Shown: positions 8,810-62,204 of the stretch, piece after piece
Position numbering within the stretch: position 1 is the stretch's first letter
How the letters are laid out: the number at the start of each line of letters is the position of its first letter
Assembly: GCA_964570935.1 (NCBI GenBank)
Contig: CAZMZP010000050.1
Coordinates: 891-64,890 of the forward strand
Reading direction: 5' to 3'
DNA: 64,000 nt
DNA from: an uncultured bacterium
Lineage (GTDB): Bacteria; Eisenbacteria; RBG-16-71-46; JAFGJU01
The notes under the pieces: generated by a model
The model's database searches: none
The model's input: the letters and a program-made list of their open reading frames with translations, nothing else
Told to the model about the DNA's origin: nothing
Position numbers and translations under genes: made by a program

Positions 8810-9772
8810 CTAGGCTTTTACGGTAAGGCCGGCCAGGGTCCTCACTATGGTCACTACCGCCGGCCCGAGGATGACAACAAACAACGACGGAAATATGCAC
8901 AGCACCAGTGGGAACACCAGCTTCACCGGCGTTTTCGCCGCCGCCTCCTCCGCCCTCTGTCTTCTTCTCGTCCGCACCGTGTCGGCGTGCGTGCGCAGGG
9001 CCTGTGCCACGCTGGTGCCCAGCTTGTCGGTCTGCACGAGCATCGCCACCAGGGAGCTCAGTTCCTCCGCTCCCGTCCTTGTCGTCAGGTCCCGGAGCGC
9101 CTGCGCCCTGGGCTTACCCGCCTTGACCTCCTGCGTCACCTGCGCGAATTCACTGCTGAGAACGCTGCTCGTCAGCTTCATCTCGCTGGACACCCTGGCA
9201 ACGGCGGCGTCCAACCCCAGGCCCGCCTCCACGCACACGACCATTAGGTCCAGCGCGTCGGGCAGATGCCGGGTGATCTCCGCCTGCCGGCGCGAGGCCG
9301 CGTGCCGCAGCCAGTAGTCCGGCAGCAGGTATCCCCCGACGCCCACCAGGAGGCCCAGCAGCAGGATCAGGCCCGGTGAATGTCCGAGCCACGCGCCCAC
9401 CGGGATGTACAGCGCGAAAAGTATCATCGCCAGGAATATCTTGGCGCCCCGGTAGACCCTCAGGGCGTTGCTCTTGCGGTACCCGGCGTACGTAAGCAGC
9501 CTCTGTATCCTCGGCTCCGCTTTCTGTGCCTTTCCCGGCGCGAACCCTCCGACGAACTCCTTCACGGAGTCCGCGGCCGTGGACGACGCCTTCCTGGCCT
9601 TACCCAGCCACCTGCCGCGACGCCCCCCGGCCACCGGGACGACGTCGGTCAGACGGTCTATTCTCCTCTGCAGAGGGTCGGGTGCCCTGAACGCGAAGTG
9701 CAGCAGCAGGGCCGCGCACAAGCTCAGACTCAAGAAAACTAGCGCCATGATCACGGGCAAAGGTAGAAGCAT
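8810..9772 (-). CDS. tadC: Flp pilus assembly inner-membrane protein TadC (type II secretion system F family)
   Basis: 320 aa polytopic GspF-like protein; follows tadB with a 3-nt gap. Confidence 0.8.
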   Translation of the reverse strand: MLLPLPVIMALVFLSLSLCAALLLHFAFRAPDPLQRRIDRLTDVVPVAGGRRGRWLGKARKASSTAADSVKEFVGGFAPGKAQKAEPRIQRLLTYAGYRKSNALRVYRGAKIFLAMILFALYIPVGAWLGHSPGLILLLGLLVGVGGYLLPDYWLRHAASRRQAEITRHLPDALDLMVVCVEAGLGLDAAVARVSSEMKLTSSVLSSEFAQVTQEVKAGKPRAQALRDLTTRTGAEELSSLVAMLVQTDKLGTSVAQALRTHADTVRTRRRQRAEEAAAKTPVKLVFPLVLCIFPSLFVVILGPAVVTIVRTLAGLTVKA

Positions 9773-9775
9773 GTC

Positions 9776-10747
9776 CTAGACCTCTATGTTCACGATTTTA
9801 CGTATCCAGACGTACCCGATTACCATCAAGGTTCCAGCCACGCCCAGCATCAGCCGTCCGGTCGAGTCCTTGAAAAGGAACATGATGTAGCTCGGGTTGA
9901 TGAGCATGATGATGAGCCCCACTGTCACCGGCAGCAGCGCCAGCACTATCCCGGACAGCCGTGCGTCGGCGGTCAGAGACCGCATCTGGCCCAGGATCTT
10001 GAACCGCTCCCTGATTGTGTAGCTGATCTTCTCGAGGATCTCCGCCACGTTGCCGCCGGTCTCTCTCTGGATCACCATGGCAATGACGAAGAACCTCACG
10101 TCCATGCTGTCTATCCTGTCGGCCAGGTTCATCAGGGCCTCTTTGAAGCTGAGCCCCAGATTCTGTTCGTCGAAAGTCTCTTTGAACTCGGACGACACAG
10201 GGTCGGGCATCTCGTCCGCCACGAGCTGTATCGCGCCGGTGAATGCGTGGCCGGCCCTCAGAGCGCTGGTCATCAGGTCGAGGGCGTCCGGGAACTGGCT
10301 CACGAAAGACCTCACTCTCTTCCTCTTCCTCCGCACGACGTTGAGCGTCGGCAGGCAGCCCAGGGCGCCGCCGCCGACTATTGCGGATATCACGCTCCGG
10401 CCGATGAAGTAGCCGAGCCCGGAACCCGCAGCCACGAAGACCAGCGTGAACAGCAGGAGCTCGCCCACGCGCATGGGCGACTCAGCCTGCCTGAGCAGTC
10501 TGTCCAGCTTGTGCGCCAGCTTGACCTTGGACAATCCCTTGTGCAAAGCCGGGATCTGGCTCATGAGCTCGTCCCGCAGGATGCTGGCGGAGACCAAGGC
10601 CTCCCTGCCGTGTTCCTTGCTCAGGGCGCTCAGCCGTTTCCTCATCCATGCCGCGCGAGTCTCCGGCGAACCCCTCCCCGCGAGCCCCAATGAGAGAAAC
10701 AGGAATGCGACTGCGAGGAGTACCAGTACGGATACTACGATGAGCAA
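9776..10747 (-). CDS. tadB: Flp pilus assembly inner-membrane protein TadB (type II secretion system F family)
   Basis: 323 aa GspF-like platform protein directly downstream of the CpaF ATPase gene. Confidence 0.8.
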   Translation of the reverse strand: MLIVVSVLVLLAVAFLFLSLGLAGRGSPETRAAWMRKRLSALSKEHGREALVSASILRDELMSQIPALHKGLSKVKLAHKLDRLLRQAESPMRVGELLLFTLVFVAAGSGLGYFIGRSVISAIVGGGALGCLPTLNVVRRKRKRVRSFVSQFPDALDLMTSALRAGHAFTGAIQLVADEMPDPVSSEFKETFDEQNLGLSFKEALMNLADRIDSMDVRFFVIAMVIQRETGGNVAEILEKISYTIRERFKILGQMRSLTADARLSGIVLALLPVTVGLIIMLINPSYIMFLFKDSTGRLMLGVAGTLMVIGYVWIRKIVNIEV

Positions 10748-10783
10748 GTGCGTCTCCTCTCCCTGAAGATTACTCCGTGACCC

Positions 10784-12133
10784 CTAGACGTCGTCAAAGA
10801 TGCCCGGAGGAAGGTGAACTCCGGCCACGAAGAGCCTCTCGGCGAACTTGGGCCTTATGCCGGTGGGCTTGAACCTCCCCAGGACCGTGCCGTCCTCGGA
10901 CACTCCCAGACGTTCGAACACGAAGATGTCCTGCATGGTGACGACGTTGCCTTCCATGCCTACAATCTCAGCCACGTTCGTCACTCTTCTTCTTCCGTCA
11001 GTCAAACGGGCTATCTGGACTACCACGTTGAGCGCCGAAGCGATCTGCTCGCGGATGGCCTTCTCCGGGAGCTCCAGCCCGGCCATCAGAACCATGGTCT
11101 CGATACGACTCAGCGAATCGCGAGGCGTGTTCGCATGGACGGTCGTCATCGAACCGTCGTGGCCGGTGTTCATGGCCTGGAGCATGTCCAGTGCCTCGTC
11201 GCCTCTGACCTCTCCCACGATTATCCTGTCAGGCCGCATACGCAGGGCGTTCCTGACGAGGTCTCTCTGGGTGATGCGTCCCCTGCCCTCTATGTTCGGC
11301 GGCCGCGTCTCGAGCCTTACCACGTGCTCCTGCTGGAGCTGGAGCTCAGCCGCGTCCTCTATGGTCACCACTCTCTCCTCTCCGGGCACGAACCCGGACA
11401 ACACGTTCAGCAGAGTCGTCTTGCCCGCGCCGGTTCCGCCGGAGATGAGGATGTTGAGCTTCGCCTTGACGGCGCCCTTCAAGAGCTCCAGCATGGCCGG
11501 AGTCATGCTCTCGAAGGTCAACAGGTCGTTAGCGGTGAGCGGATTCGCCCCGAACCTTCGAATCGACAGCACCGGGCCGTCGATAGACAGCGGCGGGATG
11601 ATGGCATTCACTCGAGACCCGTCCGGGAGTCTCGCGTCCACCATTGGGGAGGACTCGTCCACTCTCCTTCCGACCGCGGCCACTATCCTGTCTATGATCT
11701 GCCTGACGTGGTTGTCGTCCTTGAACTTGACTCCCGTCAGCTCCAGCTTTCCGAACCTCTCGACGTACACCTGGTCGTGGCCGTTGACCAGGATGTCGGA
11801 GAGGGTCGGGTCCGCCAGAAGCGGCTCAATGGGGCCCAGCCCCAGAGTCTCGTGGACGACTTCCTCTGTGAGCTTCTCCCGGTCGGCCCTGCTCAGCGGA
11901 AGGGTCTCGCCCGCTATGATCGCCTCGAGCGCGAGCCGGACCTGCCCGCGGAGCTGGTCCTGCGGGATGGTGTCGATGGTCGCGAGGTCGAGCTTCTCGA
12001 TGAGCTTGTGATGCACTCTCGACTTCAGCTCCTGGTAGGCGTCCCTGGTCTCGGGCTCCGCCCCCCTGTACCCGAAGCGTTCCATCTTCACCTTCGGCGT
12101 CTGCTGACGCCCGAGTCTTTCGAAGAGTGCCAT
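10784..12133 (-). CDS. cpaF: Flp pilus assembly ATPase CpaF/TadA
   Basis: 449 aa; Walker [14 protein letters not shown]; type II/IV secretion NTPase motifs. Confidence 0.9.
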
Positions 12134-12136
12134 TCT

Positions 12137-13324
12137 CTACCTCCTCAGGAGCTTCGCCAGCGAGCGTTTCTTGGGGGCTTCCGCCTCGATCTCTTCCTCG
12201 GGGCCCATCCTGCACATTGCGTACGCCAGCTCGCGCAAATTCACCGTCACTGGCGACTGCGGCGCGGATTCGATCAGAGGCACCCCCGAATTGATGGAGT
12301 TGCTGACGCTCGCGTAGTCGTTCGGTATGCGCCAGAAAACGGGATACTCAAAGCTCTTCTCGAATTTCTCCACGACCACCGACTTGTTCGGTACGAACCG
12401 GTTGAGCAGGAGCTTCACTTTGTCACGGCCGTAGCCCAACCTCTGGAATATCTCTATGCACCTCTTCGAGTTTCTTATCGCCGGCAGCTCCAGGGCCGAC
12501 ACCAGGAAGATCGCGTCGGACAGGTCGAGGGTCTCCACGCATCTTTCGTCGAACGTGTGCGACGTGTCGACGATCACGTACTCGAACATCGAACGCAGCA
12601 ACCGCAGCACCTGGCCTATCTGTTCCGCCGTGATGGCCTCCGCCTCCTCGGCCTGCTGAGGCTCCGCCATGACGTACGCGCCGGACGAATGCTGGACCAT
12701 GTGCCCCCTGAGAAGAGTCTGGTCCAGTTTCTCGTAGCTCCGCGCCACGTCGGCGATGGTGTAGGTGGGCTGCACGTTGAGGAACATGGCCGCGTCGCCG
12801 AACTGGAGGTCAAGGTCCACGACCGCGGCCGACTTGCCGCAGGCCTTGGCCAGCATGACCGCCAGGTTCACCGCGAGCATCGTCGTGCCCAGCCCGCCCT
12901 TGTTGCTGAATATCGTGATTATCTCGCCCGCCACCGTGCCCTGCGTCTGGACCTTTCTCATCACCTTTCGGATGGCGGCGACGACCTCGTCCTGGTCCAG
13001 CGGGCGTTTGAGGAACTCTTGTATGCCGGACCGCATGGCCTTGAGTATCACGTCCGGCTTCGTCTCAGACGAGACGGCGAAGATAGACGCCTGCGGGTAC
13101 ACCTCCACGATCTTGGCCGCGGTCGCCAGGTGGTCCTCCGCGGGAGACGAGATTTCCAGGAACACGATGTGCGGCCTGAACTGCCTGACCAGGTTGACTC
13201 CGACGCGCAGGTCGTCCGACTCCGCGCGCACCTGAGCTCCGGGCAGCTCCCGCAGAATGTTCTTGAGCGAGTAGTGAACGTCCTTGTCGCTGTCGATTAT
13301 GACAATAGAGATTTCGTCCAGCAT
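12137..13324 (-). CDS. cpaE: Flp pilus assembly protein CpaE/TadZ (pseudo-receiver + MinD/ParA-like ATPase)
   Basis: 395 aa; N-terminal receiver-like fold with Glu (FLEIS) at the phospho-acceptor position; deviant Walker A SNKGGLGTT. Confidence 0.8.
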   Translation of the reverse strand: MLDEISIVIIDSDKDVHYSLKNILRELPGAQVRAESDDLRVGVNLVRQFRPHIVFLEISSPAEDHLATAAKIVEVYPQASIFAVSSETKPDVILKAMRSGIQEFLKRPLDQDEVVAAIRKVMRKVQTQGTVAGEIITIFSNKGGLGTTMLAVNLAVMLAKACGKSAAVVDLDLQFGDAAMFLNVQPTYTIADVARSYEKLDQTLLRGHMVQHSSGAYVMAEPQQAEEAEAITAEQIGQVLRLLRSMFEYVIVDTSHTFDERCVETLDLSDAIFLVSALELPAIRNSKRCIEIFQRLGYGRDKVKLLLNRFVPNKSVVVEKFEKSFEYPVFWRIPNDYASVSNSINSGVPLIESAPQSPVTVNLRELAYAMCRMGPEEEIEAEAPKKRSLAKLLRR

Positions 13325-13330
13325 ACTTGT

Positions 13331-14626
13331 CTATTCCACCATCTGGTATGACCACGTGAAGCTCTGGTTGCCGTCGCCGGGCTGGCTTCCCTTGACACAC
13401 GAAATGGGCGCCCGCGTAAGCCTGGCGGTTACGACGCTGTGCCTGTCAACCCCCTCTATGAAGAATGCCACTATCTTTGTCACGACGATAGTGTTCCCCC
13501 TCTCCTCCGTGAGTCTTCCGGACTCCGGCCACATTCTGGGGTCGAAGACAGGGACAAATATTATCCTGGGGCTCTCTCCTATGTTTCCGCCATCAGAGGA
13601 GTGGTCCACGTTGTCTACTTCTTCACTCCAGAACGCGTCGGGATCCTGCTCCAGGATGTCCTTGGTGCCCTGGACCGTGGGTCCGACCATGTTGCCCGGC
13701 TCGCTCTCCAGGGTGAACTCCTCATTTGGATCGATGACCGTCGGGTTGCACTTACTGATGTTTTCTCTATAAGCGGCGGCGCCGCGGCGGGCCTCGCCAT
13801 ATTCCTCAGGCCACGGCAGGACGATGGGATTGAAGAAGCTAGCAGCAGGTCTGGTTTCCTGTGCGCCGAGCTTAAGAAAGACCTGCATTCCCACATTTCC
13901 GTCCGGCGGCAAACTGGGGATGTAACCGGCCTCGTTCGCCTGCGACAACGCTCTGTCGTAGTGCTCGCTGTCGTAGACCCCGTTCCCGTTCCCGTCCGTG
14001 AACGTTTCGCCCGGATCGTAGAGTCTATTGCCGTTGGAGTCGGTGAACTTCTCGCCGTTCCACCTACCGTTGTTCTGCCACGACGATTTTCCGGTCGAGT
14101 ATCCGGGAATAGGGGTCGTGTCGTCCCAAAGATCAGGTATGGTCCAGGGCTTGACGCAGCATGCAGTCGAGCTCGGGGTCACGAGGAGGACCGCCCTGGC
14201 CGACACGTCGGCGAAGGGAATCCGCAAGATCTTGGCGAAGAAGAGCGGCAGGCCGTTGTCTCTTGACCGCAACTTGCGGGCATACACGGTGAGTCTCTTG
14301 TCGGCGATTATGATGTCTTCTGCCGGCACTATGTACACTGACTCGTCGTTGCCGGCCTTGTGCCTCCCAGCCATCTCGATCACTCTGTTGGCGACTTCGC
14401 TCGACTTGGTCGGCTCCTCCAGGATCATGGCGCCCGCCGCGGCCAGGACGCAGGCGTCAGCCGCGTTCTGGAGCTGCTGCTTGGTGACCATGATGTAGCC
14501 TATGTCCACGGCGAAGGCCGCAAGGGCCAGCATGGCTATGATGAGAAAACCTATGAGGGGCAACACGGCCCCCCGCTGCGAAAACAATAGAGTCACACCT
14601 TTACCAGACTGTCTCATTGCGCTCAC
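13331..14626 (-). CDS. TadG-like pilus-associated protein (Tad N-terminal pseudopilin-like domain)
   Basis: 431 aa; N-terminal TM plus VDIGYIMVTKQQLQNAADA motif typical of the TadE/TadG N-terminal domain; large extracytoplasmic C-terminal region. Confidence 0.7.
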   Translation of the reverse strand: MSAMRQSGKGVTLLFSQRGAVLPLIGFLIIAMLALAAFAVDIGYIMVTKQQLQNAADACVLAAAGAMILEEPTKSSEVANRVIEMAGRHKAGNDESVYIVPAEDIIIADKRLTVYARKLRSRDNGLPLFFAKILRIPFADVSARAVLLVTPSSTACCVKPWTIPDLWDDTTPIPGYSTGKSSWQNNGRWNGEKFTDSNGNRLYDPGETFTDGNGNGVYDSEHYDRALSQANEAGYIPSLPPDGNVGMQVFLKLGAQETRPAASFFNPIVLPWPEEYGEARRGAAAYRENISKCNPTVIDPNEEFTLESEPGNMVGPTVQGTKDILEQDPDAFWSEEVDNVDHSSDGGNIGESPRIIFVPVFDPRMWPESGRLTEERGNTIVVTKIVAFFIEGVDRHSVVTARLTRAPISCVKGSQPGDGNQSFTWSYQMVE

Positions 14627-15811
14627 CTACTCCTCTCCAGATGCCCTCCCGGTGCCCGGCCAGGCAGGCACATCTGATGCGCTGTACGAGCCCACGATCT
14701 TCGGCGTCACCAACAGCACCAGCTCGGTCTCGTTCTGCATGAAACTCGTGCTCTTGAACAGCAAACCGAGAATAGGGATGTCGCCGAGGATCGGGAACTT
14801 CGAAACACCCTTTGAATCCTCTCTCGTAATCAAACCGGCCACGACGAGCGTCTGGCCGTCCTTGAGCTCTACCGTGCTCTGGGCTCTTCTCGTACGAAGG
14901 GCCGGTATCGCATACCCGCCCAACACTATTCCGTTGTCCCAGTCGAGAGTGCTCACTTCGGGCTCCACCTTGAGGCTCACCACGCCCGAATCCACGACCG
15001 TGGGCGTAAACTTGAGCTGAACTCCGAATTCCTTCCACTCTATTGTCACGCTGTTTCCGCCGCCGCCGGTCTGGAGTATGGGAACCGGTATCTCGCCGCC
15101 GGCCAGAAACTCCGCCTGATGTCCGCTTATCGCAACGAGGGTGGGCTCGGCCAGCGTGTTGACGACACCCTTCTTCTCCAGTGCCTTCAAAGCCGCTTCG
15201 ACGCCGTATGACGGGTGCGCCAGAGAAAGGTACGTGGTCACGCCCGAACTCAGGGTGAGAGGGATGGTAGGCGGTGTCACCTGGCCGGCGAAGCTTCCCA
15301 CGACGGCCTCCTGGAAGTCCTCACCGAAGATTCTAGGATTGAGGTCCGTGCTCACGAAGTCGACGCCCAACTCCTTCATGGCCGTCCTGTTCACCTCGGC
15401 GAACCGGACTTTGAGCATCACCTGCTGAAACGACGTGTCGGTATGAACGACCAGGTTGTAGAAAGTGGGCCTTTCCTCGCTGTCCCATACGACCAGGCTG
15501 GTCGTGCCCGGAGCCTTTCCGTTCACCAGGAGCTGCTTGGGAGAGGCCACCATGACGTCGGCTATGGCCGGGTCCGTCACCGAAACGCGCGTGATGTTCT
15601 CAGTGAACGTGATGACCTGTGATTTACCTACGATGACCTCCATCTTGAGGAGTGCGCCCGCGGGGACGACCGCGGCCGAAACGTCGCGAGCCAGACACGG
15701 TGTCAAAAGCAGCAGGCTGGACACAACCAGCCAGGCAAGACGTCTTCTGCTAAGCATGATCGCTGTTCTCCTCCATTCCCCGGCTTCCCTGGGAGGAAAG
15801 CTGCGGGTCAA
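14627..15811 (-). CDS. cpaC: Flp pilus secretin CpaC/RcpA
   Basis: 394 aa; signal peptide; secretin domain (TLVAISGHQAEFLAGGEIPVP, ETELVLLVTPKIV). Confidence 0.85.
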   Translation of the reverse strand: MTRSFPPREAGEWRRTAIMLSRRRLAWLVVSSLLLLTPCLARDVSAAVVPAGALLKMEVIVGKSQVITFTENITRVSVTDPAIADVMVASPKQLLVNGKAPGTTSLVVWDSEERPTFYNLVVHTDTSFQQVMLKVRFAEVNRTAMKELGVDFVSTDLNPRIFGEDFQEAVVGSFAGQVTPPTIPLTLSSGVTTYLSLAHPSYGVEAALKALEKKGVVNTLAEPTLVAISGHQAEFLAGGEIPVPILQTGGGGNSVTIEWKEFGVQLKFTPTVVDSGVVSLKVEPEVSTLDWDNGIVLGGYAIPALRTRRAQSTVELKDGQTLVVAGLITREDSKGVSKFPILGDIPILGLLFKSTSFMQNETELVLLVTPKIVGSYSASDVPAWPGTGRASGEE

Positions 15812-15845
15812 AACCGCACAAGATCAGCGCATGAACTGAGTATGT

Positions 15846-16727
15846 CTATCTCGATTGAGACTTGTCTTCAAATTTCTCCTCTGTCCTCTTCGAGCCCCGG
15901 ATCACCTCGACACCGATGGTCTTCTTCTCCGGCTTCGCGGCGGGCTTCACTTCCGCCGTGGTCCTCGCGGACGGCCTCGGCCGCGTGACTCTCACCGGCG
16001 CCGCCACTCTCTGAACCGGCTCGCTCTTAGAAAGCATCTCGGCGATGGTAGTGCCCTTCGTGCCTGCTGAATCCGAGTCCGCGGGGTTCCTCAGGATCAG
16101 GTTGATCTCGCCCTCGTGAGCGCACAGAGCAAGTTTCTCCGCCTCGCTCGGGGTCACCAGGAGCGTCACCGCGGTCGACTTGAGGGGTCTTCCCTCGGTG
16201 TCCTCGATCTTCTGGTCGACGGCCAGCACAGTCAGGTTTTGAAGTACTACCTTTCCCACCTGCTCTCTGCTCAGCTCAGGTCTTATCGTCACTACTAAAT
16301 CGATCTTGGTCTCGGGCAGCACGAAGCCGGCTACCCCGGACCAGACGTTGACGGGCACGGTCATGGCCCTCATTCCCTCGGGTATCAGTATGGCCAGCCC
16401 CCTGTTCATGCCGATGGGAACCAGCTTTGTCTCGAGGAGGGCTTCGCCCGCCACGACCGGCGACTTGACGACTCTGCCGTACAGATCCTGAGGCGACGTG
16501 GAGGCTCCCGCGGGGACTATCTCAACCGGCCAGCCGACGGCCTCGACGTTCGTCTCGTCCAGGACGCTGCCGAAGGGAAGGTCCTTGATGGCCACCACTA
16601 CCGGCTGCTCTGCGATCTTCTTCTCACGGATCATCTTGTCGTACTGGGCAAGGTAGCGATAAATCGCGACCGCTGCCAGGAGCCCGAAAACGACGGCAAG
16701 AATCACAACAACCCTGATTCTGGTCAC
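15846..16727 (-). CDS. cpaB: Flp pilus assembly protein CpaB/RcpC
   Basis: 293 aa; N-terminal TM anchor; SAF/CpaB-type domain; Ala/Pro/Lys-rich C-terminal tail. Confidence 0.8.
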   Translation of the reverse strand: MTRIRVVVILAVVFGLLAAVAIYRYLAQYDKMIREKKIAEQPVVVAIKDLPFGSVLDETNVEAVGWPVEIVPAGASTSPQDLYGRVVKSPVVAGEALLETKLVPIGMNRGLAILIPEGMRAMTVPVNVWSGVAGFVLPETKIDLVVTIRPELSREQVGKVVLQNLTVLAVDQKIEDTEGRPLKSTAVTLLVTPSEAEKLALCAHEGEINLILRNPADSDSAGTKGTTIAEMLSKSEPVQRVAAPVRVTRPRPSARTTAEVKPAAKPEKKTIGVEVIRGSKRTEEKFEDKSQSR

Positions 16728-16749
16728 TTGAAAAACCTCCGTCTCAAGT

Positions 16750-17163
16750 TCAGATTTCCCGACGCATGCTGCAGGAAGCTCTCAGGGGCAGTTCGTCCAA
16801 TCTCGGGAATAGATGCGCAAAAGAGGTGTGGAACGCAACGATGACGTTGACTGTGACGGGCACCCCTATGGACGGAGTGCCTTCAAGAACCACGTTCACC
16901 TGGATGTCGTCGTCAGGGATGTGGGAATCGTAGAGGACCTCCCTGACCTTCGTCTCCACGGTACCCAGGTTGTCTTCCACGTCGGGAACTATTGCTGCGT
17001 AGCGGGCCCCGACTCTCGCGGCGCCGTTGGCGACGCCCAGAAGCATCCACGCTCTGGAGAACTCAGCCATCGCGATGATCACCAGAAAAAGCATCATCGC
17101 GACTAGAGCGAACTCGACTACTGCCGCGCCTTTGTTAGATTGTATTCTTCGCACATGTCTCAT
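16750..17163 (-). CDS. tadE: TadE-like minor pilin/pseudopilin
   Basis: Start taken at MRHVRRIQSNKGAAVVEFALV (TadE N-terminal motif); the ORF-track extension to 17256 has no support. Confidence 0.65.
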   Translation of the reverse strand: MRHVRRIQSNKGAAVVEFALVAMMLFLVIIAMAEFSRAWMLLGVANGAARVGARYAAIVPDVEDNLGTVETKVREVLYDSHIPDDDIQVNVVLEGTPSIGVPVTVNVIVAFHTSFAHLFPRLDELPLRASCSMRREI

Positions 17164-17281
17164 CACATAACCAGCTTTCCTGATGTTGCAGCGCAGACCA
17201 CAGTGTCCCCCGGACGGGTTTCGGTCCTCTCGAACGGCCCGCCCGAGGGAATTCAACTGGGTTCGGACTGTGGTCTCAGCC

Positions 17282-17452
17282 TTACGGCGTTGCGCCGAGT
17301 GCAGTCGCGATGGCCTCGAACACGCGGATAAGCTCGTCTCTGAGCAGGATTATCGCGGCGATGACGGCGATCGCAACCAGGGCTATGAGCAGCGCGTACT
17401 CGGTTATCGCAGCACCCTTGTTACCCTTGAACAGATTCTTCAGGAACCTCAT
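17282..17452 (-). CDS. flp: Flp family type IVb pilin
   Basis: 56-aa ORF absent from the ORF track: MRFLKNLFKGNKGAAITEYALLIALVAIAVIAAIILLRDELIRVFEAIATALGATP; conserved G/xxxxEY processing motif and hydrophobic core; strong SD AAAGGAGGA 8 nt upstream; heads the tad operon. Confidence 0.75.
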   Translation of the reverse strand: MRFLKNLFKGNKGAAITEYALLIALVAIAVIAAIILLRDELIRVFEAIATALGATP

Positions 17453-17552
17453 TTCTCCTGTCCTCCTTTCACACGGCCTCTAACACTTAACTAATCGGCA
17501 GCAAAACCTTCACTCCTTACGTCTTTTTCTGACAACACCTCCTTGTGCGAAC

Positions 17553-17575
17553 CGCAATCACGCCTTGGGATTGCG
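17553..17575 (-). promoter_or_regulatory. perfect inverted repeat CGCAATC-N9-GATTGCG in the flp leader
   Basis: 7-bp perfect palindrome arms seen directly; shares the GCAATC/GATTGC half-site with the palindrome at 62185-62204. Confidence 0.3.
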
Positions 17576-17682
17576 TTCCCGTGGTTGCCGCCCGCACACT
17601 ATTGTAGCGGGCGAACCGCTGTCAAGTTAATTATGCCCTCCTTCGGTTTGCCGTGGCGCGACTGTCTTCGCGGGACCCAAAA

Positions 17683-17698
17683 AGCAAACCCTATGCCA
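17683..17698 (-). promoter_or_regulatory. candidate sigma-54 (-24/-12) promoter upstream of flp
   Basis: Minus strand reads TGGCATAGGGTTTGCT versus consensus TGGCACG-N4-TTGCW; GG and GC elements correctly spaced; about 230 nt upstream of the flp ATG. Confidence 0.35.
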
Positions 17699-17943
17699 CG
17701 GCCGCGCTTTCCAGAGCCGATTTTCTAACTGATTTGAGGGTAATGTGTTGCAGGCAACGGACGGCCGCCATTGATCTCTCAAAAACCCGCCTCAGCCTCT
17801 GTTTAGCGCGGCATTTCTGTCGCACTAGAGGACAATTATGCCCTGGCGGCTCTTGATGTGCTCGCGGAATTCGAGCGGTTTCGGCGGTCGTATCTTCTTC
17901 AAGGTCAGCGAATCACACCACCACGAGCCGCCGGGCGCGGTTC

Positions 17944-18801
17944 CTACGGCAGCAGGCCGGCCTGGCGCAGGAGCTCGCGAAGGGGCGCGAACTTGAACTC
18001 TCTCAGTAGGGTGTCCAGGCGGGCGTGTGTGCGACCCAGAAAGGCGTAGTGGTTCGGCCTCTTCAGCCACGACGTCACACGGGGCTGCCCCGGGTCCAGC
18101 TCCCAGGGGTGAACGCTCACGACCGCGGGCAGGCCGCCGGCGTTCAGACGACGCACCAGGAGCGCGGTCACGGCCACCGGGAGGAGACGTAAGTATGCGC
18201 CTGAGCCGAACGGCAGGTCCAGGCGGGCCACCCGACAGGTCGACATCGGGAACTCCACCAGGGTACCCGTCGCGATCCGCCGTCTGTGCGGGCTCACGCG
18301 CTCGCCCGGGATTCCGTAGACCTTGCGCCGTATGGGGTAGATGCTGGAGTCGTACAGGTGCCCGGTCTCGCCCAGGATGTCTAGGGCCCAGAGCGTGCCG
18401 GACACGACCGAGTAATTGGAGGCCCTGAAACCCACGACCGGGGCGCCGATGATGTCCTCCAGCACTGCCTTGGTTCTTGTGACCTCCGTTCTGAAATCGT
18501 CCTGACTCATGCGGTAAACAGGCCTGTGCGACCAGCCGTGCGAGGCCACCTCGTGCCCGGCCCGGAATATGTCCCTAACGAGCCCGGGGTGTCTATCGGC
18601 GTTCCAGCCTAGGACAAAAAAGGTGCCGCGCGCGCCGCGCGCGGCAAGCAAGTCGAGCAACCTACGAGTGTTGTCTTCCAACCGGGGCTCGTAGGAGCTC
18701 CACGAGGAGTAAGGGATGATGGACTCGAAGGACCTGACCTGGAAGTAGTCCTCGACGTCCACAGAGAATGCGTTGATGACGGATGGCTTGGTGACGGGCA
18801 C
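17944..18801 (-). CDS. polysaccharide deacetylase family protein (resembles the exosortase/PEP-CTERM-locus subfamily)
   Basis: 285 aa; N-terminal FSVDVEDYFQV and NodB-type motifs (HGWSHR); cytoplasmic (no signal peptide). Confidence 0.85.
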   Translation of the reverse strand: MPVTKPSVINAFSVDVEDYFQVRSFESIIPYSSWSSYEPRLEDNTRRLLDLLAARGARGTFFVLGWNADRHPGLVRDIFRAGHEVASHGWSHRPVYRMSQDDFRTEVTRTKAVLEDIIGAPVVGFRASNYSVVSGTLWALDILGETGHLYDSSIYPIRRKVYGIPGERVSPHRRRIATGTLVEFPMSTCRVARLDLPFGSGAYLRLLPVAVTALLVRRLNAGGLPAVVSVHPWELDPGQPRVTSWLKRPNHYAFLGRTHARLDTLLREFKFAPLRELLRQAGLLP

Positions 18802-18815
18802 GGTAGCTCCCTACG

Positions 18816-19778
18816 CTAGCCGGACGCCCTCTGCTGCTTGAACCAGCTGAGGGTTCTCTCGAGCCCCGCTTCGAAGCTGACCTTCACCTTGAAGCCGAGC
18901 TCCGTCTCCGCCTTCTTCGTCGAGCCCTCGGAGTGCTTGACTTCGGCCGGCCGCGCTTCGTGGTAGAGCGGCGGGAGTCCGTCGCCGGTCAGCCTGGACA
19001 GGATTGCGGCAAGCTCGTTGATCGTCCGCCTGCTGCCCCTGGCCACGTTGTACACGCGGCCCTGTAACCCAGGCTTGTGGCAGGCGATCAGGTTCGCCTC
19101 CACCAGGTCCTCCACGAACGTGAAGTCCCTGCTCTGTTCGCCGTCCCCGAAAATCTCCGGCGGCAGTCCCGAAAGAAGGCGAGACATGAAAAGAGGTATT
19201 ACCGCGGCGTACTGCGAGCCTGCGTCCTGCCTCGGACCGAAAACGTTGAAGTACCTCAGGCACACGGTCTCGAGGCCGTACACGGGTGTGAAAAGCCGGC
19301 AGTACTGTTCGCCGGTCAACTTGCTCAGGGCGTACGGTGAGCGCGGGCTGGGCGCCAGGTCCTCGTGGTTGGGAAGGGCCGCGGTCTCCCCGTAGACAGA
19401 CGAGGAGCTGGCGTAGACGACCCTCCTCACACCCGCCTTCCCGGCCTGCACCAGCAGCCTCAGGGTGCCCTCGATGTTCACGCTGTTCGTCGAAAGCGGA
19501 TCCTCCACCGAGCGGAGGACGGAGCAAAGGGCCGCTTCGTGGAAGACGTACTTTATGCCGCGGAGCGCCTCCGCCAGCGCCGCGTCGTCCCTGATGTCAC
19601 CCCGCACGAGCTCCGGCCGAGTCCCGCGGCCGGCCGCAGCCGCGGCCGATTCGAGGTTCGCTTCGCGGCCGGTGGAGAAGTTGTCGATGACTCTGACCGA
19701 CAGGCCTTCCCGCAGCAGCCTCTCCACGATGTTCGAGCCTATGAAGCCGGCTCCGCCCGTGACAAGGTATTCGCTCAT
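18816..19778 (-). CDS. UDP-GlcNAc(A) C4-epimerase, TviC/WbpP family (NAD-dependent epimerase/dehydratase)
   Basis: 320 aa; GGAGFIGS Rossmann motif, IDNFSTG, YxxxK (YALSK), LRYFNVFGPRQ, GDGEQSRDFTFV; strong resemblance to TviC/WbpP. Confidence 0.85.
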   Translation of the reverse strand: MSEYLVTGGAGFIGSNIVERLLREGLSVRVIDNFSTGREANLESAAAAAGRGTRPELVRGDIRDDAALAEALRGIKYVFHEAALCSVLRSVEDPLSTNSVNIEGTLRLLVQAGKAGVRRVVYASSSSVYGETAALPNHEDLAPSPRSPYALSKLTGEQYCRLFTPVYGLETVCLRYFNVFGPRQDAGSQYAAVIPLFMSRLLSGLPPEIFGDGEQSRDFTFVEDLVEANLIACHKPGLQGRVYNVARGSRRTINELAAILSRLTGDGLPPLYHEARPAEVKHSEGSTKKAETELGFKVKVSFEAGLERTLSWFKQQRASG

Positions 19779-19812
19779 GTCCTCACGCCGTGTCCAGGGA
19801 AGCGCATTTCCG

Positions 19813-21198
19813 TCACAGCCTCCATATCTTTCCGGACCTCATGCCCTTGAGGGCGTTTCTGGAGTCAAATATCAGCTTCGCCCGGGAGGCGATCATGCCG
19901 TAGTCGAACGCGGTGTGCGCGGTGGTGATGACTACGCAGTCCGCTTTCTCCAGCAGCGTCGCAGTCAGAGGCTTCGACTTTATGTGGAAGCGCTCCGTCT
20001 TGAGCTCGTCTATGTGAGGGTCCGAATACCACACTTCCGCCCCCAGTGAGGTCAGCATCTGGTAGATGTCCAGGGCGGGAGATTCGCGGGAGTCGTCCAC
20101 GTCCGCCTTGTAGGCCACGCCCAGAAGCAGGATACGAGAGCCGTTGACGCTCTTCTTGACCGAGTTCAGCGCCTCGCTCACCTTTCCCACCACGTGGTAC
20201 GGCATGCTGCCGTTCACCTGGCCGGCTAGTTCGATGAAGCGAGCCTCGAACCCGCTCAGCTTGGCCTTCCACGACAGGTAGAAAGGGTCTATCGGGATGC
20301 AGTGCCCTCCCAGACCCGGTCCCGGATAAAACGGCATGAAACCGAAGGGCTTGCTGGACGCCGCTTGGATCACCTCCCACACGTCGATCTTCATCTTGTC
20401 GCACATGAGGGCCATTTCGTTGACCAGGCCTATGTTCACGCTTCTGAACGTGTTTTCGAGCAGCTTCACCATCTCCGCCACCCTGGTGGACGACACCGGT
20501 ACCACGGTCGAGAGAGTGGCCTTGTAGACTTCGGCCGCTACCCGGGTGCAGCTCTCGGTGACGCCGCCGACGACTTTAGGTATGTTGCTCGTCGTGAAGC
20601 TCCTGTTGCCGGGGTCCACTCTCTCTGGAGAGAAGCCCAGGAAAAAGTCTCTCCCGACCGTCAGTCCCGTCTCCTCCAGCATCGGGAGAATCAGCTCGTC
20701 TGTCGTGCCCGGATACGTCGTGCTCTCCAGCAGCACGAGCTGACCGGGATGCAGGTACTTCGCGATTTCACCGGCCGCGCTGACTATGCTGGAAACGTCC
20801 GGGTCGCGCGTCTTCCTGAGAGGAGTGGGAACACAGATGCTGACGCAGTCGGTATCCTGTAAAACCGAAAAATCCGTCGTCGCCGACAACCGGCCCGACC
20901 CGACCTCCCGCTTGAGCTCCGCCGCCGGAACGTCCTGTATGTAGGACTTGCCGGCGTTGACTCTGCCGACCTTTCCGGCGTCAGTGTCTATGCCTGTCAC
21001 CCTGAAGCCGGCCTTCGCGAACTCGACCGCCAGAGGCAGTCCGACGTATCCGAGGCCTATGACGGCCATGCGGGCCTTCTTCTGCACAACCTTCGTCCTG
21101 AGGCCATCGAACGTGCGTTCCTCCGGCGGAACGGCCTTAGGGTTTCTTGCCACCCTTTTCATCGTCCCTTTCCTTGTACCCGTAGTAATGGTAGTCAT
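19813..21198 (-). CDS. UDP-N-acetyl-D-glucosamine 6-dehydrogenase, TviB/WbpO family
   Basis: IGLGYVGLPLAVEF NAD-binding motif, catalytic GGHC, FFLGFSPERVDPGN; start uncertain (an ATG at 21069 would remove the overlap with the upstream gene). Confidence 0.85.
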   Translation of the reverse strand: MTTITTGTRKGTMKRVARNPKAVPPEERTFDGLRTKVVQKKARMAVIGLGYVGLPLAVEFAKAGFRVTGIDTDAGKVGRVNAGKSYIQDVPAAELKREVGSGRLSATTDFSVLQDTDCVSICVPTPLRKTRDPDVSSIVSAAGEIAKYLHPGQLVLLESTTYPGTTDELILPMLEETGLTVGRDFFLGFSPERVDPGNRSFTTSNIPKVVGGVTESCTRVAAEVYKATLSTVVPVSSTRVAEMVKLLENTFRSVNIGLVNEMALMCDKMKIDVWEVIQAASSKPFGFMPFYPGPGLGGHCIPIDPFYLSWKAKLSGFEARFIELAGQVNGSMPYHVVGKVSEALNSVKKSVNGSRILLLGVAYKADVDDSRESPALDIYQMLTSLGAEVWYSDPHIDELKTERFHIKSKPLTATLLEKADCVVITTAHTAFDYGMIASRAKLIFDSRNALKGMRSGKIWRL

Positions 21199-21907
21199 AG
21201 TAATAAGGAAGCACCTCCTCCACGTTGTTTATGACCGCCCCGAGCAGGTTCGCGCCGCCCTCACTGAGCAGCTCTCCCGCCCTGGCCACCACCTCCACCG
21301 GTGTCTTTCCCGCCATGACCACCAGTAGCACTCCGTCGCAGTTCGCGGATATGAAGAAAGCGTCGGCCACCGGCAGCACCGGGGCCGAATCTATTATCAC
21401 AAGGTCGAAGTTCGCCCTGAGCTCGGCCACGGTTGCCTTGAACGTGGACGACTCGAACAGCGCTGTGGGAACGCCTATCACTCGTCCGCTGGTGATCAAT
21501 TTCAGATTCGGCAGCTCCGTGCTCTTTATGACCGAGCTCAGAGGCACCAGTGTCCCGAGCACGTCGGACATTCCAGTGCGCTGGCTCACGCCGAACACCT
21601 CGTGCAGTCTCGGCCTTCTCAAGTCGCAGTCCACCACAATTACCTTCTTGTCCGAGTGGGCCGCCGCGCTCTGGGCCAGAAAAGCGGACGTAGTCGTCTT
21701 GCCCTCGCCTCTTCTGGCGCTGGTCACCAGCACCACGCTCAGCTTCTTCTGCGCGTTGAGCCGCGTCAGCTTCGAGTAGAGGCGGTGGAACTCCGTGGCC
21801 ACCGGTGAGTCGCCGTCGAGCTCGCTCATCGGAAGCCTGCCCACGCTTCTGACTCCCGGACGCGGGCGGGGTCGATCAGTGTCGTTCAAGATTTCCAGCT
21901 TCCTCAT
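21137..21907 (-). CDS. polysaccharide tyrosine autokinase, cytoplasmic ATPase component of a split BY-kinase (CapB-like)
   Basis: Start MRKLEILN at 21907 (ATGA overlap with upstream stop); Walker A ARRGEGKTT; C-terminal tyrosine cluster YYYDYHYYGY. Confidence 0.8.
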   Translation of the reverse strand: MRKLEILNDTDRPRPRPGVRSVGRLPMSELDGDSPVATEFHRLYSKLTRLNAQKKLSVVLVTSARRGEGKTTTSAFLAQSAAAHSDKKVIVVDCDLRRPRLHEVFGVSQRTGMSDVLGTLVPLSSVIKSTELPNLKLITSGRVIGVPTALFESSTFKATVAELRANFDLVIIDSAPVLPVADAFFISANCDGVLLVVMAGKTPVEVVARAGELLSEGGANLLGAVINNVEEVLPYYYDYHYYGYKERDDEKGGKKP

Positions 21908-23559
21908 TGCGTCGTGGCCGTCCCTTCGCTCCGGCCGGTCACGCCGGCCGCTTCGATACCCTGGTCGGCCCTGCCGGTGGCGCTCATGATGGGCCCGTGA
22001 GCCAGATGCGCAGTGACGGCGATCAGCACCGCCGCCAGCAGGGAGACGTATGGCCACTTTCTCCTTTGTACGGGATGCCAGAACTCGCTGCCCGGCATCC
22101 TGGGTATGGTCCCCAGCACCGGCAGCCCGAGCCCCTTCGACAGGTGGTCCACCGACCTCACGGTGTTGTCCATGTACTCCGCCAGAACCGCGAATGAAAG
22201 CCCCAGAAAAGGCCCCAGTATGAAAGCCAACAGCAGTATCCTCTGCTTTCTCGGACCGGCCGGTCCGAACGGCCTCGCCGGCGGCTCTATGATCTCTATT
22301 CTGACGCCCAGGTTCGTCGACTGCGCCGCCTCGGAAATCTGCGCTGACGTCATCTGCGACCTGAGAGACTGAAGCACGTTCCTGTTCTCGGCGACCTCCT
22401 CCTCCAGCCTCGCCAGTTCCACCTCGTCCTGCGGTCTGCTCACCAGCGAACGCCCGTAGCTGGAGACCTGACCGGACAGTGCGGTCCTTCTCGCCTTCAA
22501 CGAATTCGCGACGTGCTCGTCGTACACTACCTCCGTGACCAGCGACTGGAGTGCGGCGGGCGAACCAGTCAGAGTCGTGGCCGCGACTTCCTCTATTCTG
22601 GCAAGCAAAGCATCACGTGACTGCCCGATTCTGTCCTTCGCCGCCGTCGTGGACCCCGCCTCCACGAGCGCCGGCGCAGCCAACTCCTCTTCCCTGACGA
22701 GCTGAGAATACGCCGACCTTATCGAATTGCTCCTGACCAGAGTCGTGGGGTCGATCTCGTTCGGGTAGTTTCTCCTGATGTTATCCCTGGCCGCGGCGGC
22801 CCTTGATGACAGGGCACCTGCCTCCTGGTCCGCCTCCCTGATAAGGCTCCTGCCCCTCTCGATGCTCCTGTCGTAACCACCCCCGTCGCTCGCGGCCATG
22901 CGGGTCTTCACGCGCTTCAACTGTGACTCGCTGTCCCTCAGTTTCTGCTCGTAGGCCGGGAGCTGGTCCTGGCTGAACGAGCCGGCGGCCCGTATGTCAA
23001 CCAGCTGGCCCTTCGTCACGAACTCGACGAAGGACTTCGTGATGCCGTCCGCGAGCAGATAGACCATGTCGCGGTCCGGATGCGTGAAAGTTATCTTGAA
23101 TAGGTCGGGGTCGGTCTCCTCGACCTTTATGTTCTTTCTCAGCCTCTCGGCTATGATTCGCGCTTTCAGCTCTTCGGCGCTCGCTCCACCGGCGTTCGTC
23201 GCTTCCAGCTTGCGCGCCGCCTTCCCCGTCAAGTCAAGGTCCAGCTTGCGGGCCACCTCCTGCAGGAAAACCCTCCCCTTCAACCTCGCCTCGATCTGTC
23301 CCAGCCTCTCATCGTCCCTCGTCCTGTACTCCGGCTTCTGGACCATCATCTTTTCCATGTCGCCGGCAAACGGCATCTTCTGCTCGTAAAGCACCACGCT
23401 GGTGGCCTCGTACTGGGAAGGCACGAAACTGAGAGCCACGACTGCCGCGCACGGCACGATGACGACCGGCAGCAGGACGAGCTCCGCCCTCCTCTTCACT
23501 GCTCTGAGGTACCGCAGGGCTTCCGCCCCTGGTGATGATGCTTCGTACGAACCGGGCAT
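21904..23559 (-). CDS. polysaccharide chain-length determinant / co-polymerase (Wzz/PCP family), membrane activator half of the split BY-kinase
   Basis: 551 aa; two TM segments flanking a long coiled-coil periplasmic region; translationally coupled to the CapB-like ATPase. Confidence 0.75.
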   Translation of the reverse strand: MPGSYEASSPGAEALRYLRAVKRRAELVLLPVVIVPCAAVVALSFVPSQYEATSVVLYEQKMPFAGDMEKMMVQKPEYRTRDDERLGQIEARLKGRVFLQEVARKLDLDLTGKAARKLEATNAGGASAEELKARIIAERLRKNIKVEETDPDLFKITFTHPDRDMVYLLADGITKSFVEFVTKGQLVDIRAAGSFSQDQLPAYEQKLRDSESQLKRVKTRMAASDGGGYDRSIERGRSLIREADQEAGALSSRAAAARDNIRRNYPNEIDPTTLVRSNSIRSAYSQLVREEELAAPALVEAGSTTAAKDRIGQSRDALLARIEEVAATTLTGSPAALQSLVTEVVYDEHVANSLKARRTALSGQVSSYGRSLVSRPQDEVELARLEEEVAENRNVLQSLRSQMTSAQISEAAQSTNLGVRIEIIEPPARPFGPAGPRKQRILLLAFILGPFLGLSFAVLAEYMDNTVRSVDHLSKGLGLPVLGTIPRMPGSEFWHPVQRRKWPYVSLLAAVLIAVTAHLAHGPIMSATGRADQGIEAAGVTGRSEGTATTQ

Positions 23560-23598
23560 GATGTCCTTTCGCGAGCTGCGCCGGACAGCCGTCCGGGC

Positions 23599-24714
23599 CT
23601 ACTCCAACAGCTCTTCGCACACGTCGTGCGTGCTGCCGCAGGCAGGCCGGGCTGCGCGCGCCTCTTCCGTGGCCCGCCGTCCGGCGCCCACGACCCTGTT
23701 CCTGCCGGCCCTCTTTGCGCTGAACAGCGCGCCGTCCGCCGACTCCAGCAGAGCTCCGATGGTCTTGCCGTCTTCGGGATAGGTCGCGGCGCCTATGCTG
23801 CAGCTTATCTCGCCGCAACGCACCTCGGGGAAAATCTGAGTGACCACCGCAGACCGGATCCTCTCCGCAAGCACGAGGGCCCCTTCCTTCGGCGTCTGCG
23901 GCAGTATTATCAGAAACTCGTCTCCCCCGTACTTGGCCACGGTGTCGATGCTTCTTGCCGTCACCTTGATGACGGCCGCCAGCTGCTTCAACACCGTGCT
24001 GCCCTTGAGATGTCCAAACTTGTCATTATAATCTTTCAGGTGGTCCACGTCCAGCATTAGAACGGAGAAGAACTGGCGGAACCGCGACGCCCTGTCCAGC
24101 TCCTTGTGCAGAGCGTCCTTGAGGAACCGAAAATTGAACACCTGCGTGAGCTCGTCGGTGACGGCCTGTTCCTGCACCTGCGCGTACAGCTTGGCGCTTT
24201 CGATCGCCATTGCGGTCTGATTGGCCAGCACGCTCAGAACGCCCAGTTCGGCTTCGCTGAACGTGGCGGTGCCCAGCTTGTTCACCGCTATCAGGACTCC
24301 CAGCACATTCTCCCGCGCCTTCAGCGGCGCGCAGATGCAGCCGCCGGTGCTGGGTGCTCGCGGCCCCTCGAGCTCCGGCCTCGGCTCGTCCGACACCCGG
24401 GGTATCAGGACGGCCTTACCCTCCATCATCACCCACCACGCAATGCCCCTCTCCCCGGTGCGCTCGTAGCGCTCCATCGGCGCTTCCGCCCCGTCCGCCC
24501 TTCTCCGCTTCGCGTACTTCACGACGACCCCGTTTTCCAAGGTGATCAGGAAGACCGCTTCGGCCCCCAGCACCTCCAGGGCGCAGGAAAGCACCTTGGA
24601 AAAGGTCATTCTCCTGTCCAAGCCGGCAGTAATCAGACCCGTGATTTCCACCAGGGTGTTAAGGAATTTTTCTTCACGAAGCACAGAACTCATCCTTCGT
24701 GCCCCTAACCGCAT
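23599..24714 (-). CDS. GAF domain diguanylate cyclase (GGDEF)
   Basis: 371 aa; N-terminal GAF; intact GGDEF (KYGGDEFLIIL) with RxxD I-site (RSID) 5 residues upstream. Confidence 0.85.
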   Translation of the reverse strand: MRLGARRMSSVLREEKFLNTLVEITGLITAGLDRRMTFSKVLSCALEVLGAEAVFLITLENGVVVKYAKRRRADGAEAPMERYERTGERGIAWWVMMEGKAVLIPRVSDEPRPELEGPRAPSTGGCICAPLKARENVLGVLIAVNKLGTATFSEAELGVLSVLANQTAMAIESAKLYAQVQEQAVTDELTQVFNFRFLKDALHKELDRASRFRQFFSVLMLDVDHLKDYNDKFGHLKGSTVLKQLAAVIKVTARSIDTVAKYGGDEFLIILPQTPKEGALVLAERIRSAVVTQIFPEVRCGEISCSIGAATYPEDGKTIGALLESADGALFSAKRAGRNRVVGAGRRATEEARAARPACGSTHDVCEELLE

Positions 24715-24769
24715 GAAAATGCACCGTTCCGCACTGAACCGACGTTGAGAAAAGCAAGTTCTATGCCAG

Positions 24770-46139: not shown

Positions 46140-46305
46140 ACCGTAACATTATCTTTTTCTAATGACCCCGGACCTCGCGCCCGCCCCACGGAGGCCGCCC
46201 GAGTCCGCGCCGGGCCGCGTCCGCCCCGCTTCCACACCACACTAGACCAGGGACGTCGACTTGTCAATAAAGGCGGCCAAAACGCGATAGCGGAAAGGAA
46301 GTATG

Positions 46306-55877: not shown

Positions 55878-56031
55878 CCACAGGTTATCTGACTCGTAAC
55901 CGGAAAGAACTTAAAGAATTGCAGGGTCTATGTCAAGTAGAATTTGAGGTTGAGTCGCGGCCACCTTGATGCTTCGCATGAAGTTCGCTGCCTGCCGCCA
56001 TGCCGCGCCGCCTTCCGCCAACGGGCCCTCG

Positions 56032-61995: not shown

Positions 61996-62037
61996 TACCA
62001 AGCGCCCAAGAGGGACTTTGACACAAGCTCCCCACTG

Positions 62038-62053
62038 AGCAACACCCATGCCA
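62038..62053 (-). promoter_or_regulatory. candidate sigma-54 (-24/-12) promoter
   Basis: Minus strand reads TGGCATGGGTGTTGCT versus consensus TGGCACGG-N4-TTGCW: one mismatch, exact spacing; 44 nt upstream of the ATG at 61995. Confidence 0.45.
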
Positions 62054-62184: not shown

Positions 62185-62204
62185 AATGCAATCCCGATTG
62201 CATT
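62185..62204 (-). promoter_or_regulatory. perfect palindrome AATGCAATC-CC-GATTGCATT, candidate enhancer/UAS
   Basis: 9-bp perfect inverted repeat; about 135-150 bp upstream of the -24 element, the typical distance for an enhancer-binding-protein site. Confidence 0.35.

Follow-up and report, generated by a model that had tools for sequence, protein, structure and literature searches.

A conserved predicted sigma-54 promoter, followed by a sigma-70-type promoter, upstream of the flp pilin gene in a tad locus of Candidatus Eisenbacteria

The Flp pilin gene found in this 64-kb stretch of Candidatus Eisenbacteria DNA (64,000 nucleotides, referred to here as the window) is very probably preceded by a real sigma-54 promoter, designated P1, that matches the full -24/-12 consensus. 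The promoter region as a whole is most likely composed of tandem promoters, with the sigma-54 promoter P1 in the distal position and a sigma-70 promoter, P2, in the proximal position. Considering the evidence as a whole, we hold with good confidence that P1 is a functional sigma-54 promoter serving flp and probably the tad operon as well. The features on which this reading is based are listed below in order of their coordinates within the window.

3107-4564, minus strand: NtrC/AtoC-type enhancer-binding protein (EBP), a response regulator with REC, AAA+ (complete Sigma54_activat domain, E 1e-69) and HTH_8 domains
4557-6518, minus strand: PAS histidine kinase with a weak N-terminal GAF domain followed by PAS, HisKA and HATPase; the gene overlaps the EBP gene by 8 nt
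8810-17256, minus strand: tad/cpa assembly genes (tadE-like, cpaB, cpaC secretin, tadG-like, REC-cpaE, cpaF ATPase, tadB and tadC)
17195-17276, minus strand: nested hairpin straight after the flp stop codon, -53.6 kcal/mol, z = -3.07, with no U-tract
17282-17452, minus strand: flp pilin gene, 56 aa, with a Flp_Fap match and its own Shine-Dalgarno (SD) sequence, GGAGG, at 17462-17466
17536-17544, minus strand: extended SD-like box, AAGGAGGTG (GGAGGTGAT in relatives)
17553-17575, minus strand: leader hairpin, CGCAATC ... GATTGCG, conserved among loci
17596-17625, minus strand: P2, a sigma-70-type promoter with TTGACA at 17625-17620, an 18-nt spacer and TAGTGT at 17601-17596
17629-17639, minus strand: second copy of AGGGCATAATT, abutting the -35 hexamer of P2
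17683-17698, minus strand: P1, a sigma-54 -24/-12 element, TGGCAT-AGGGT-TTGCT
17806-17846, minus strand: conserved upstream block and candidate UAS, GGGCATAAT (G[GT]GCAnAAT in relatives)
17944-18801, minus strand: XrtA-type polysaccharide deacetylase gene (TIGR03006, 311 bits against a cut-off of 276)
24753-24768, minus strand: sigma-54 element TGGCATAGAACTTGCT, ahead of the GAF-GGDEF gene at 23599-24714
62038-62053, minus strand: sigma-54 element TGGCATGGGTGTTGCT, ahead of the GAF-GAF-GGDEF-like gene at 59704-62049

On the minus strand, positions 17698-17683 spell TGGCATAGGGTTTGCT, which matches every specified position of the sigma-54 pattern TGGCAY-N5-TTGCW. The GG and GC doublets are exactly 10 nt apart, which is the canonical -24/-12 spacing. 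The element falls within the 491 bp that separate flp from the deacetylase gene and is on the same strand as flp; this gap is argued to be non-coding because the alignment contains indels and conservation is confined to blocks. A scan of the 64-kb window with the strict pattern returned three matches against 0.07 expected, and none of 100 shuffles reached three. The three matches (17683-17698, 24753-24768 and 62038-62053) are all on the minus strand, and each is intergenic and sense-oriented toward a minus-strand downstream gene. The loose pattern TGG-N9-TGCW is found 25 times in the window against 13.5 expected, an enrichment of only about two-fold, and the signal therefore resides in the full boxes. 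The original prediction had described a sigma-54-type motif on the minus strand of a leader of approximately 490 bp, with GG and GC at the exact -24/-12 spacing, and had named a second site at 62038-62053. These observations are all borne out, the first with a full consensus match and the last by the strict pattern scan, and the scan adds a third site (24753-24768) that was absent from the original finding. The interpretation of the motif as a sigma-54 promoter is in turn supported by the consensus match, by its rarity in the window and by its conservation in 14/14 loci. Under the rule that places the start 12 nt past the C of the -12 box, transcription from P1 is predicted to begin near 17672.

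Orthologous loci were drawn from collections of genomes and metagenomes and from exact look-ups of proteins, and the resulting comparison set is composed of 14 distinct flp loci of Candidatus Eisenbacteria with CpaB proteins 63-100% identical to that of the window. The related contigs come from sediment and wetland samples. The P1 element is present in all 14 distinct loci, which is every locus that reaches far enough upstream, and it begins 244-266 nt before the flp ATG. It is conserved even where CpaB is just 63-67% identical. Across the 14 loci TGGCA and TGC are 100% identical and the T preceding TGC is 93% identical, with spacers that read AGGGT, AACGA, ACACC, AGCGA, GCAGT, GACCT, AACCC, AGGGC and ACGGC. 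Mean identity is 92% at the specified sigma-54 positions, 66% in the spacer and 56% in the flanks. Across the 480 nt ahead of flp, identity of 92% or above over four or more consecutive bases is confined to TGGCA, TTGC, AATT, CTTGACA, TAGT and TTGCGG. When the final base of the sigma-54 pattern is left free, its matches in the fetched loci of 11-21 kb fall only at the orthologous flp and GAF-GGDEF positions. An apparent absence of P1 from two loci was rejected, with variants of the element present in both: TTGCG in L017, which has G at the final W position, and ATGCC in L027, which has ATGC for TTGC. Conservation that is specific to the boxes is the footprint expected of a working -24/-12 promoter and would otherwise be hard to explain. 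The named homologues of both CpaB and the EBP are almost all proteins from MAGs of Candidatus Eisenbacteria / Eiseniibacteriota.

P2 is located approximately 60 nt past the -12 element of P1. Its -35 hexamer is TTGACA in 13 of the 14 loci and TTGACT in the remaining one, the spacer is 17-18 nt throughout the set, and the flp ATG follows the -10 hexamer at 141-147 nt in the 14 loci. Positions T1, A2 and T6 of the predicted -10 hexamer are invariant and positions 3-5 are variable (TAGTGT, TAGTCT, TAGATT, TACTGT), a pattern of variation that is that of a sigma-70 -10 box. The arrangement TTGACA-N16-18-TAnnnT occurs five times in the window against 0.21 expected, a 24-fold enrichment, and canonical sigma-70 promoters are therefore evidently in use in this organism. 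The other four matches are at 46239-46267, 55908-55936, 39659-39687 and 1529-1558, all on the minus strand, and one of them shares the TAGTGT -10 hexamer of the flp P2. These four could help to define the housekeeping promoter consensus of the phylum. Consensus rules place the predicted start of P2 near 17589. A leader of roughly 230 nt had been remarked on in the original prediction as unusually long; the leader is indeed long, about 220 nt from the predicted start at 17672, but it is better read as tandem promoters followed by a conserved leader of about 140 nt, because the conserved P2 lies inside it.

Dual sigma-54/sigma-70 promoters are known from glnAp1/glnAp2 of E. coli and P1/P3 of Neisseria pilE. 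As in these systems, the flp gene would have both a sigma-70 and a sigma-54 promoter, so that basal and signal-dependent expression are both possible. Unlike in them, the sigma-54 promoter occupies the distal position, with about 60 nt between it and the sigma-70 -35 hexamer, and this order of promoters, whose function is predicted, is kept throughout an entire uncultured lineage.

The conserved block further upstream keeps a fixed position of -140 to -145, counted from the T in TGGCA, and is followed by an A-run and GCCRC. This spacing from P1 falls in the range of roughly 80-200 nt that is normal for an activator site, and the block is a candidate UAS. Enumeration of dyads in 12 loci did not find a dyad common to all within the upstream block; a CAAA-N9-TTTG dyad is found in five of the 12 against a shuffle maximum of three. 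The 11-mer AGGGCATAATT at 17834-17844 within the block is identical to the copy at 17629-17639, and the two are 205 nt apart. In the related loci a similar box, G[GT]GCnGAAT, is found 12 nt before the CTTGACA of P2. Position 2 of the box is either G or T (GGGC versus GTGC) and changes at both sites together, lineage by lineage, as would be expected if one co-evolving protein bound them both. The paired variation hints, as a minority possibility, at one protein acting on both promoters. In a fuller version of this idea, one regulator, possibly the EBP of the locus, would bind G[GT]GCnnAAT both about 143 nt upstream of P1 and against the P2 -35 hexamer and would switch flp from a basal sigma-70 mode to an induced sigma-54 mode, with a decoy SD in the leader stabilising the pilin mRNA. 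This combination is speculative and is considered unlikely.

The assembly genes that follow flp are in turn followed, beyond tadC, by two genes without an assigned function, a sugar-phosphate transferase gene, the PAS histidine kinase gene and the EBP gene. The EBP is the only one encoded in the 64-kb window, and domain matches confirm the NtrC-family EBP that had been predicted at 3107-4564. The kinase had been described as a cytoplasmic GAF-PAS kinase with a gene overlapping that of the EBP. The overlap is present and the protein is probably cytoplasmic, because it has no hydrophobic segment (no 19-residue Kyte-Doolittle mean above 1.6), but the GAF assignment stands only as a sub-threshold match of 18 bits against a cut-off of 22.4. 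The weak GAF-like region also contains a Cys-rich insert (5814-5957, minus strand; kinase residues 188-235) of 48 residues with eight Cys (CREAKKCIKQEC...CVKC), which may represent a metal site, an Fe-S site or a redox sensor. The loop of the EBP reads GAFTDA rather than GAFTGA (3893-3910, minus strand; residues 219-224). This form is common to 120 of the 120 closest homologues, which come from several phyla, and is therefore a subfamily trait and not a defect. The EBP scores under every NCBIfam equivalog cut-off. PrsK-PrsR was considered owing to the neighbouring XrtA-type polysaccharide genes, and this identity was rejected, with the EBP scoring 378 bits against 502.6 for TIGR02915 and the kinase 108 against 300 for TIGR02916.

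The orthologue group of the EBP has 79-90% identity, after which identity drops to approximately 62%. Its members are encoded on contigs of 20607, 46942, 20613 and 166029 nt, and CpaB is listed on contigs of the same sizes. The gene order tadC, intervening genes, Bac_transf, kinase and EBP is found in a relative (L029) with a CpaB 64% identical to that of the window; L029 and L026 are overlapping ranges of one contig. In L027 the kinase gene likewise follows Bac_transf. Since synteny with the tad locus is kept in distant relatives (CpaB approximately 64%), the kinase-EBP pair is the best candidate for the regulator of P1, acting as its activator. The original prediction had named the pair as one possible route of sigma-54 control and was right not to commit itself to this EBP as the cognate one. 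No promoter or terminator above chance was found between the tad genes and the kinase-EBP genes, so co-transcription of the two, and hence positive feedback, is possible.

In the mechanism proposed here, sigma-54 RNA polymerase would bind TGGCAT-N5-TTGCT and wait there as a closed complex, and transcription would start near 17672 only once an ATP-hydrolysing EBP at the conserved block, some 140 nt further upstream, contacts the polymerase through a DNA loop. The likeliest activator would be the PAS kinase and NtrC-type regulator pair of the locus (3107-6518). P2 would supply a second, activator-independent start near 17589. Transcripts from P1 and P2 would share the conserved leader of about 140 nt, which is composed of a small hairpin, the extended SD-like box and a strong SD, and the hairpin after flp would probably set the pilin-to-machinery ratio. 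P1 and the two sigma-54 promoters located before GAF-GGDEF genes together suggest one sigma-54-driven surface/biofilm programme.

The match at P1 might instead be a chance occurrence in GC-rich non-coding DNA that has no function, as short degenerate motifs do arise by chance and the loose pattern is itself found more often than expected. The strict pattern, however, is over-represented by a much wider ratio (three matches against 0.07), and P1 occupies the same position in 14/14 loci, where conservation picks out the -24 and -12 boxes. A chance origin is considered extremely improbable, and the comparative data effectively refute it. The conserved P2 could also by itself account for flp expression. 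It is near-consensus, as well conserved as P1 and nearer to flp, and a search that covered the 64-kb window and 250 kb of related loci found no ORF with an RpoN box. The gene may then be transcribed essentially from P2, with the sigma-54 element bound but silent or marginal, either poised or vestigial; the sigma-54-type promoter of Neisseria pilE has reportedly been proposed to be such a poised or vestigial site. Had the site no function, however, TGGCA and TGC would not have stayed invariant, nor the T before TGC nearly so, while the spacer and flanks drifted in relatives as divergent as these. The same genomes also conserve two more sigma-54 sites with short leaders, neither of them accompanied by a comparable sigma-70 motif, and the locus has retained an intact EBP. 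We infer the presence of rpoN from the abundance of EBPs in Eisenbacteria MAGs and from the conserved promoters. Transcription essentially from P2 is on this evidence judged quite improbable.

A further reading accepts P1 as a real promoter and assigns its activation to an EBP encoded elsewhere, in which case the 3107-6518 pair would control other targets such as the polysaccharide or GGDEF genes. Many paralogous EBPs with 56-62% identity are encoded in Eisenbacteria MAGs, and activators can be unlinked to their targets. The EBP of the locus is 13 kb from P1 and adjoins the sugar transferase gene, and the dyad search did not provide a binding-site link between this EBP and P1. Set against these points, the pair stays with the tad locus although the intervening genes differ between L029 and the window, and it includes the sole EBP in 64 kb. 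Known pilins also usually have locus-encoded sigma-54 regulators (PilR, and DVU2114; PMC3333781). Activation from elsewhere is possible, if somewhat doubtful. The two other sigma-54 promoters in the window likewise require an activator.

With P1 taken as the functional sigma-54 promoter and P2 as the proximal one, both transcripts would carry the same leader into flp. The pilin assignment of the flp ORF is based on a Flp_Fap match with an E value of 3.7e-5, below the Pfam cut-off. As a structure, the leader hairpin is weakly supported because there is little covariation. The single-sequence fold of the leader has a z of -1.0 against shuffles, and the alignment fold yields the small hairpin only, with almost no covariation. 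A riboswitch or other known RNA in the leader, such as a c-di-GMP element, was rejected, since an Rfam scan of 17250-17960 with E values up to 10 gave only noise (E 1.3 or worse) and the leader folds no better than its shuffles. The GGAGGTG box is found in 14/14 loci at about 85-95 nt before the flp ATG and may act as an mRNA stabiliser or as a standby site for ribosomes. STAB-SD is a 5' mRNA stabiliser in the cryIIIA leader of Bacillus thuringiensis, and the flp leader is similar to it in having a strong SD-like sequence far upstream of the start codon that serves no ORF; the resemblance is one of sequence only (GGAGGTG at that distance from the ATG). A 14-codon frame (17535-17491, minus strand) with a TTG start is located just past the SD-like box and ends in TAG, and this frame is open with the same TAG in the window and in the three closest relatives (L007, L009 and L010). 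An upstream ORF behind the SD-like box was rejected as a conserved feature, the frame being broken in L027 and absent in distant loci. On the other side of the gene, a GC-rich hairpin comparable to that at 17195-17276 follows flp in 12/12 related loci that were folded, and its sequence differs between lineages. This hairpin is likely an attenuator or mRNA stabiliser that would set the ratio of pilin to machinery.

Control of the type IVa pilin gene pilA by PilS-PilR and sigma-54 in Pseudomonas aeruginosa, Myxococcus xanthus and Geobacter sulfurreducens is cited in PMC3333781. The flp locus is similar to these systems in that the pilin gene is on a -24/-12 promoter and an NtrC-type regulator (REC, AAA+ and Fis-type HTH) and a kinase are encoded near the pilus genes. 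It differs in its target, which is a 56-aa Flp of the Tad/Cpa type and not a type IVa pilin, and in its kinase, which is soluble and has PAS, whereas PilS is a multi-pass membrane protein. The position of the EBP under all NCBIfam equivalog cut-offs and the additional conserved sigma-70-type promoter downstream are further differences. The closest functional precedent is DVU2114, a sigma-54-dependent response regulator of Desulfovibrio vulgaris that binds upstream of Flp/Cpa-type pilin genes in DAP-chip (PMC3333781). A sigma-54 activator and a Flp/Cpa-type pilin gene followed by cpa/tad genes are common to that case and the present one. D. vulgaris belongs to another phylum, and the likeness drawn here is one of function. 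The DVU2114 gene is beside the pilin genes, whereas the regulator here is encoded at the far end of the operon, and a tandem sigma-70 promoter is not described in the available passage on the D. vulgaris case (PMC3333781). Judged from its sequence features, the flp locus is predicted to work like the PilS-PilR and DVU2114 systems but is not PilS-PilR.

Control of pilins by sigma-54 is already known, with the Flp type included through the D. vulgaris case, and the current understanding of sigma-54 and Tad pili is left unchanged by the P1 finding. What appears to be new is the phylum, the conserved tandem order of a sigma-54 and then a sigma-70 promoter, and the repeated box. To our knowledge, Candidatus Eisenbacteria has no cultured representative and no experimental genetics. 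A footprinted promoter architecture is among the few regulatory statements possible for this group. If the reading is true, canonical -24/-12 sigma-54 promoters and canonical sigma-70 promoters operate in this phylum, and one sigma-54-linked surface/biofilm programme would take in the Flp pilus and two diguanylate cyclase-type genes, with the XrtA-type polysaccharide genes as possible further members. Sigma-54 is generally linked to pili, flagella and the cell exterior (PMC3162934), and a shared programme of this kind fits the proposal that the bacterial exterior is under sigma-54 control (PMC3162934). In practice, reporter and DAP-seq tests and the annotation of the sigma-54 regulon in related MAGs can draw on the defined sequences of P1, P2 and the upstream box.

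Outside of this lineage, the distant tad loci (from Acidobacteria and others: L004-L006 and L019-L025) were searched for Flp, and a pilin was recognised in L020 only. L020 is a tad locus on a 690-kb metagenome contig with a CpaB 37% identical to that of the window. It contains TGGCACAAGACATGCT, of the form TGGCAC-N5-ATGCT, at approximately 2436 on the plus strand, 321 nt before a flp-like ORF at 2757. Sigma-54 promoters with long leaders may therefore be present ahead of flp beyond this lineage, with one locus being too few to generalise.

The sigma-54 element at 24753-24768 is located straight after the stop codon of a 109-aa membrane-like ORF and approximately 40-60 nt before the GAF-GGDEF gene, and it is conserved in L026 and L031 at 75 nt before the orthologous gene. 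For the element at 62038-62053, a perfect palindrome, ATGCAATCGGGATTGCAT, is found 150 nt upstream (62186-62203, minus strand) and is a textbook-looking candidate activator site. The TGCAA half-site of ATGCAATCGGGATTGCAT resembles the GTGCAAAAT box found upstream of flp in relatives.

A conserved gene order is shared between the window (17944-24714, minus strand) and L026, L027, L030 and L031. It is composed of GAF-GGDEF, chain-length determinant, tyrosine kinase and UDP-sugar dehydrogenase genes, and continues with an epimerase gene, the XrtA-type deacetylase gene, flp and the tad genes, the sugar transferase gene, the kinase gene and the EBP gene. The pilus and an XrtA/PEP-CTERM-type polysaccharide system thus appear to form one block. 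Within this block, L030 also encodes the exosortase EpsH and EpsI.
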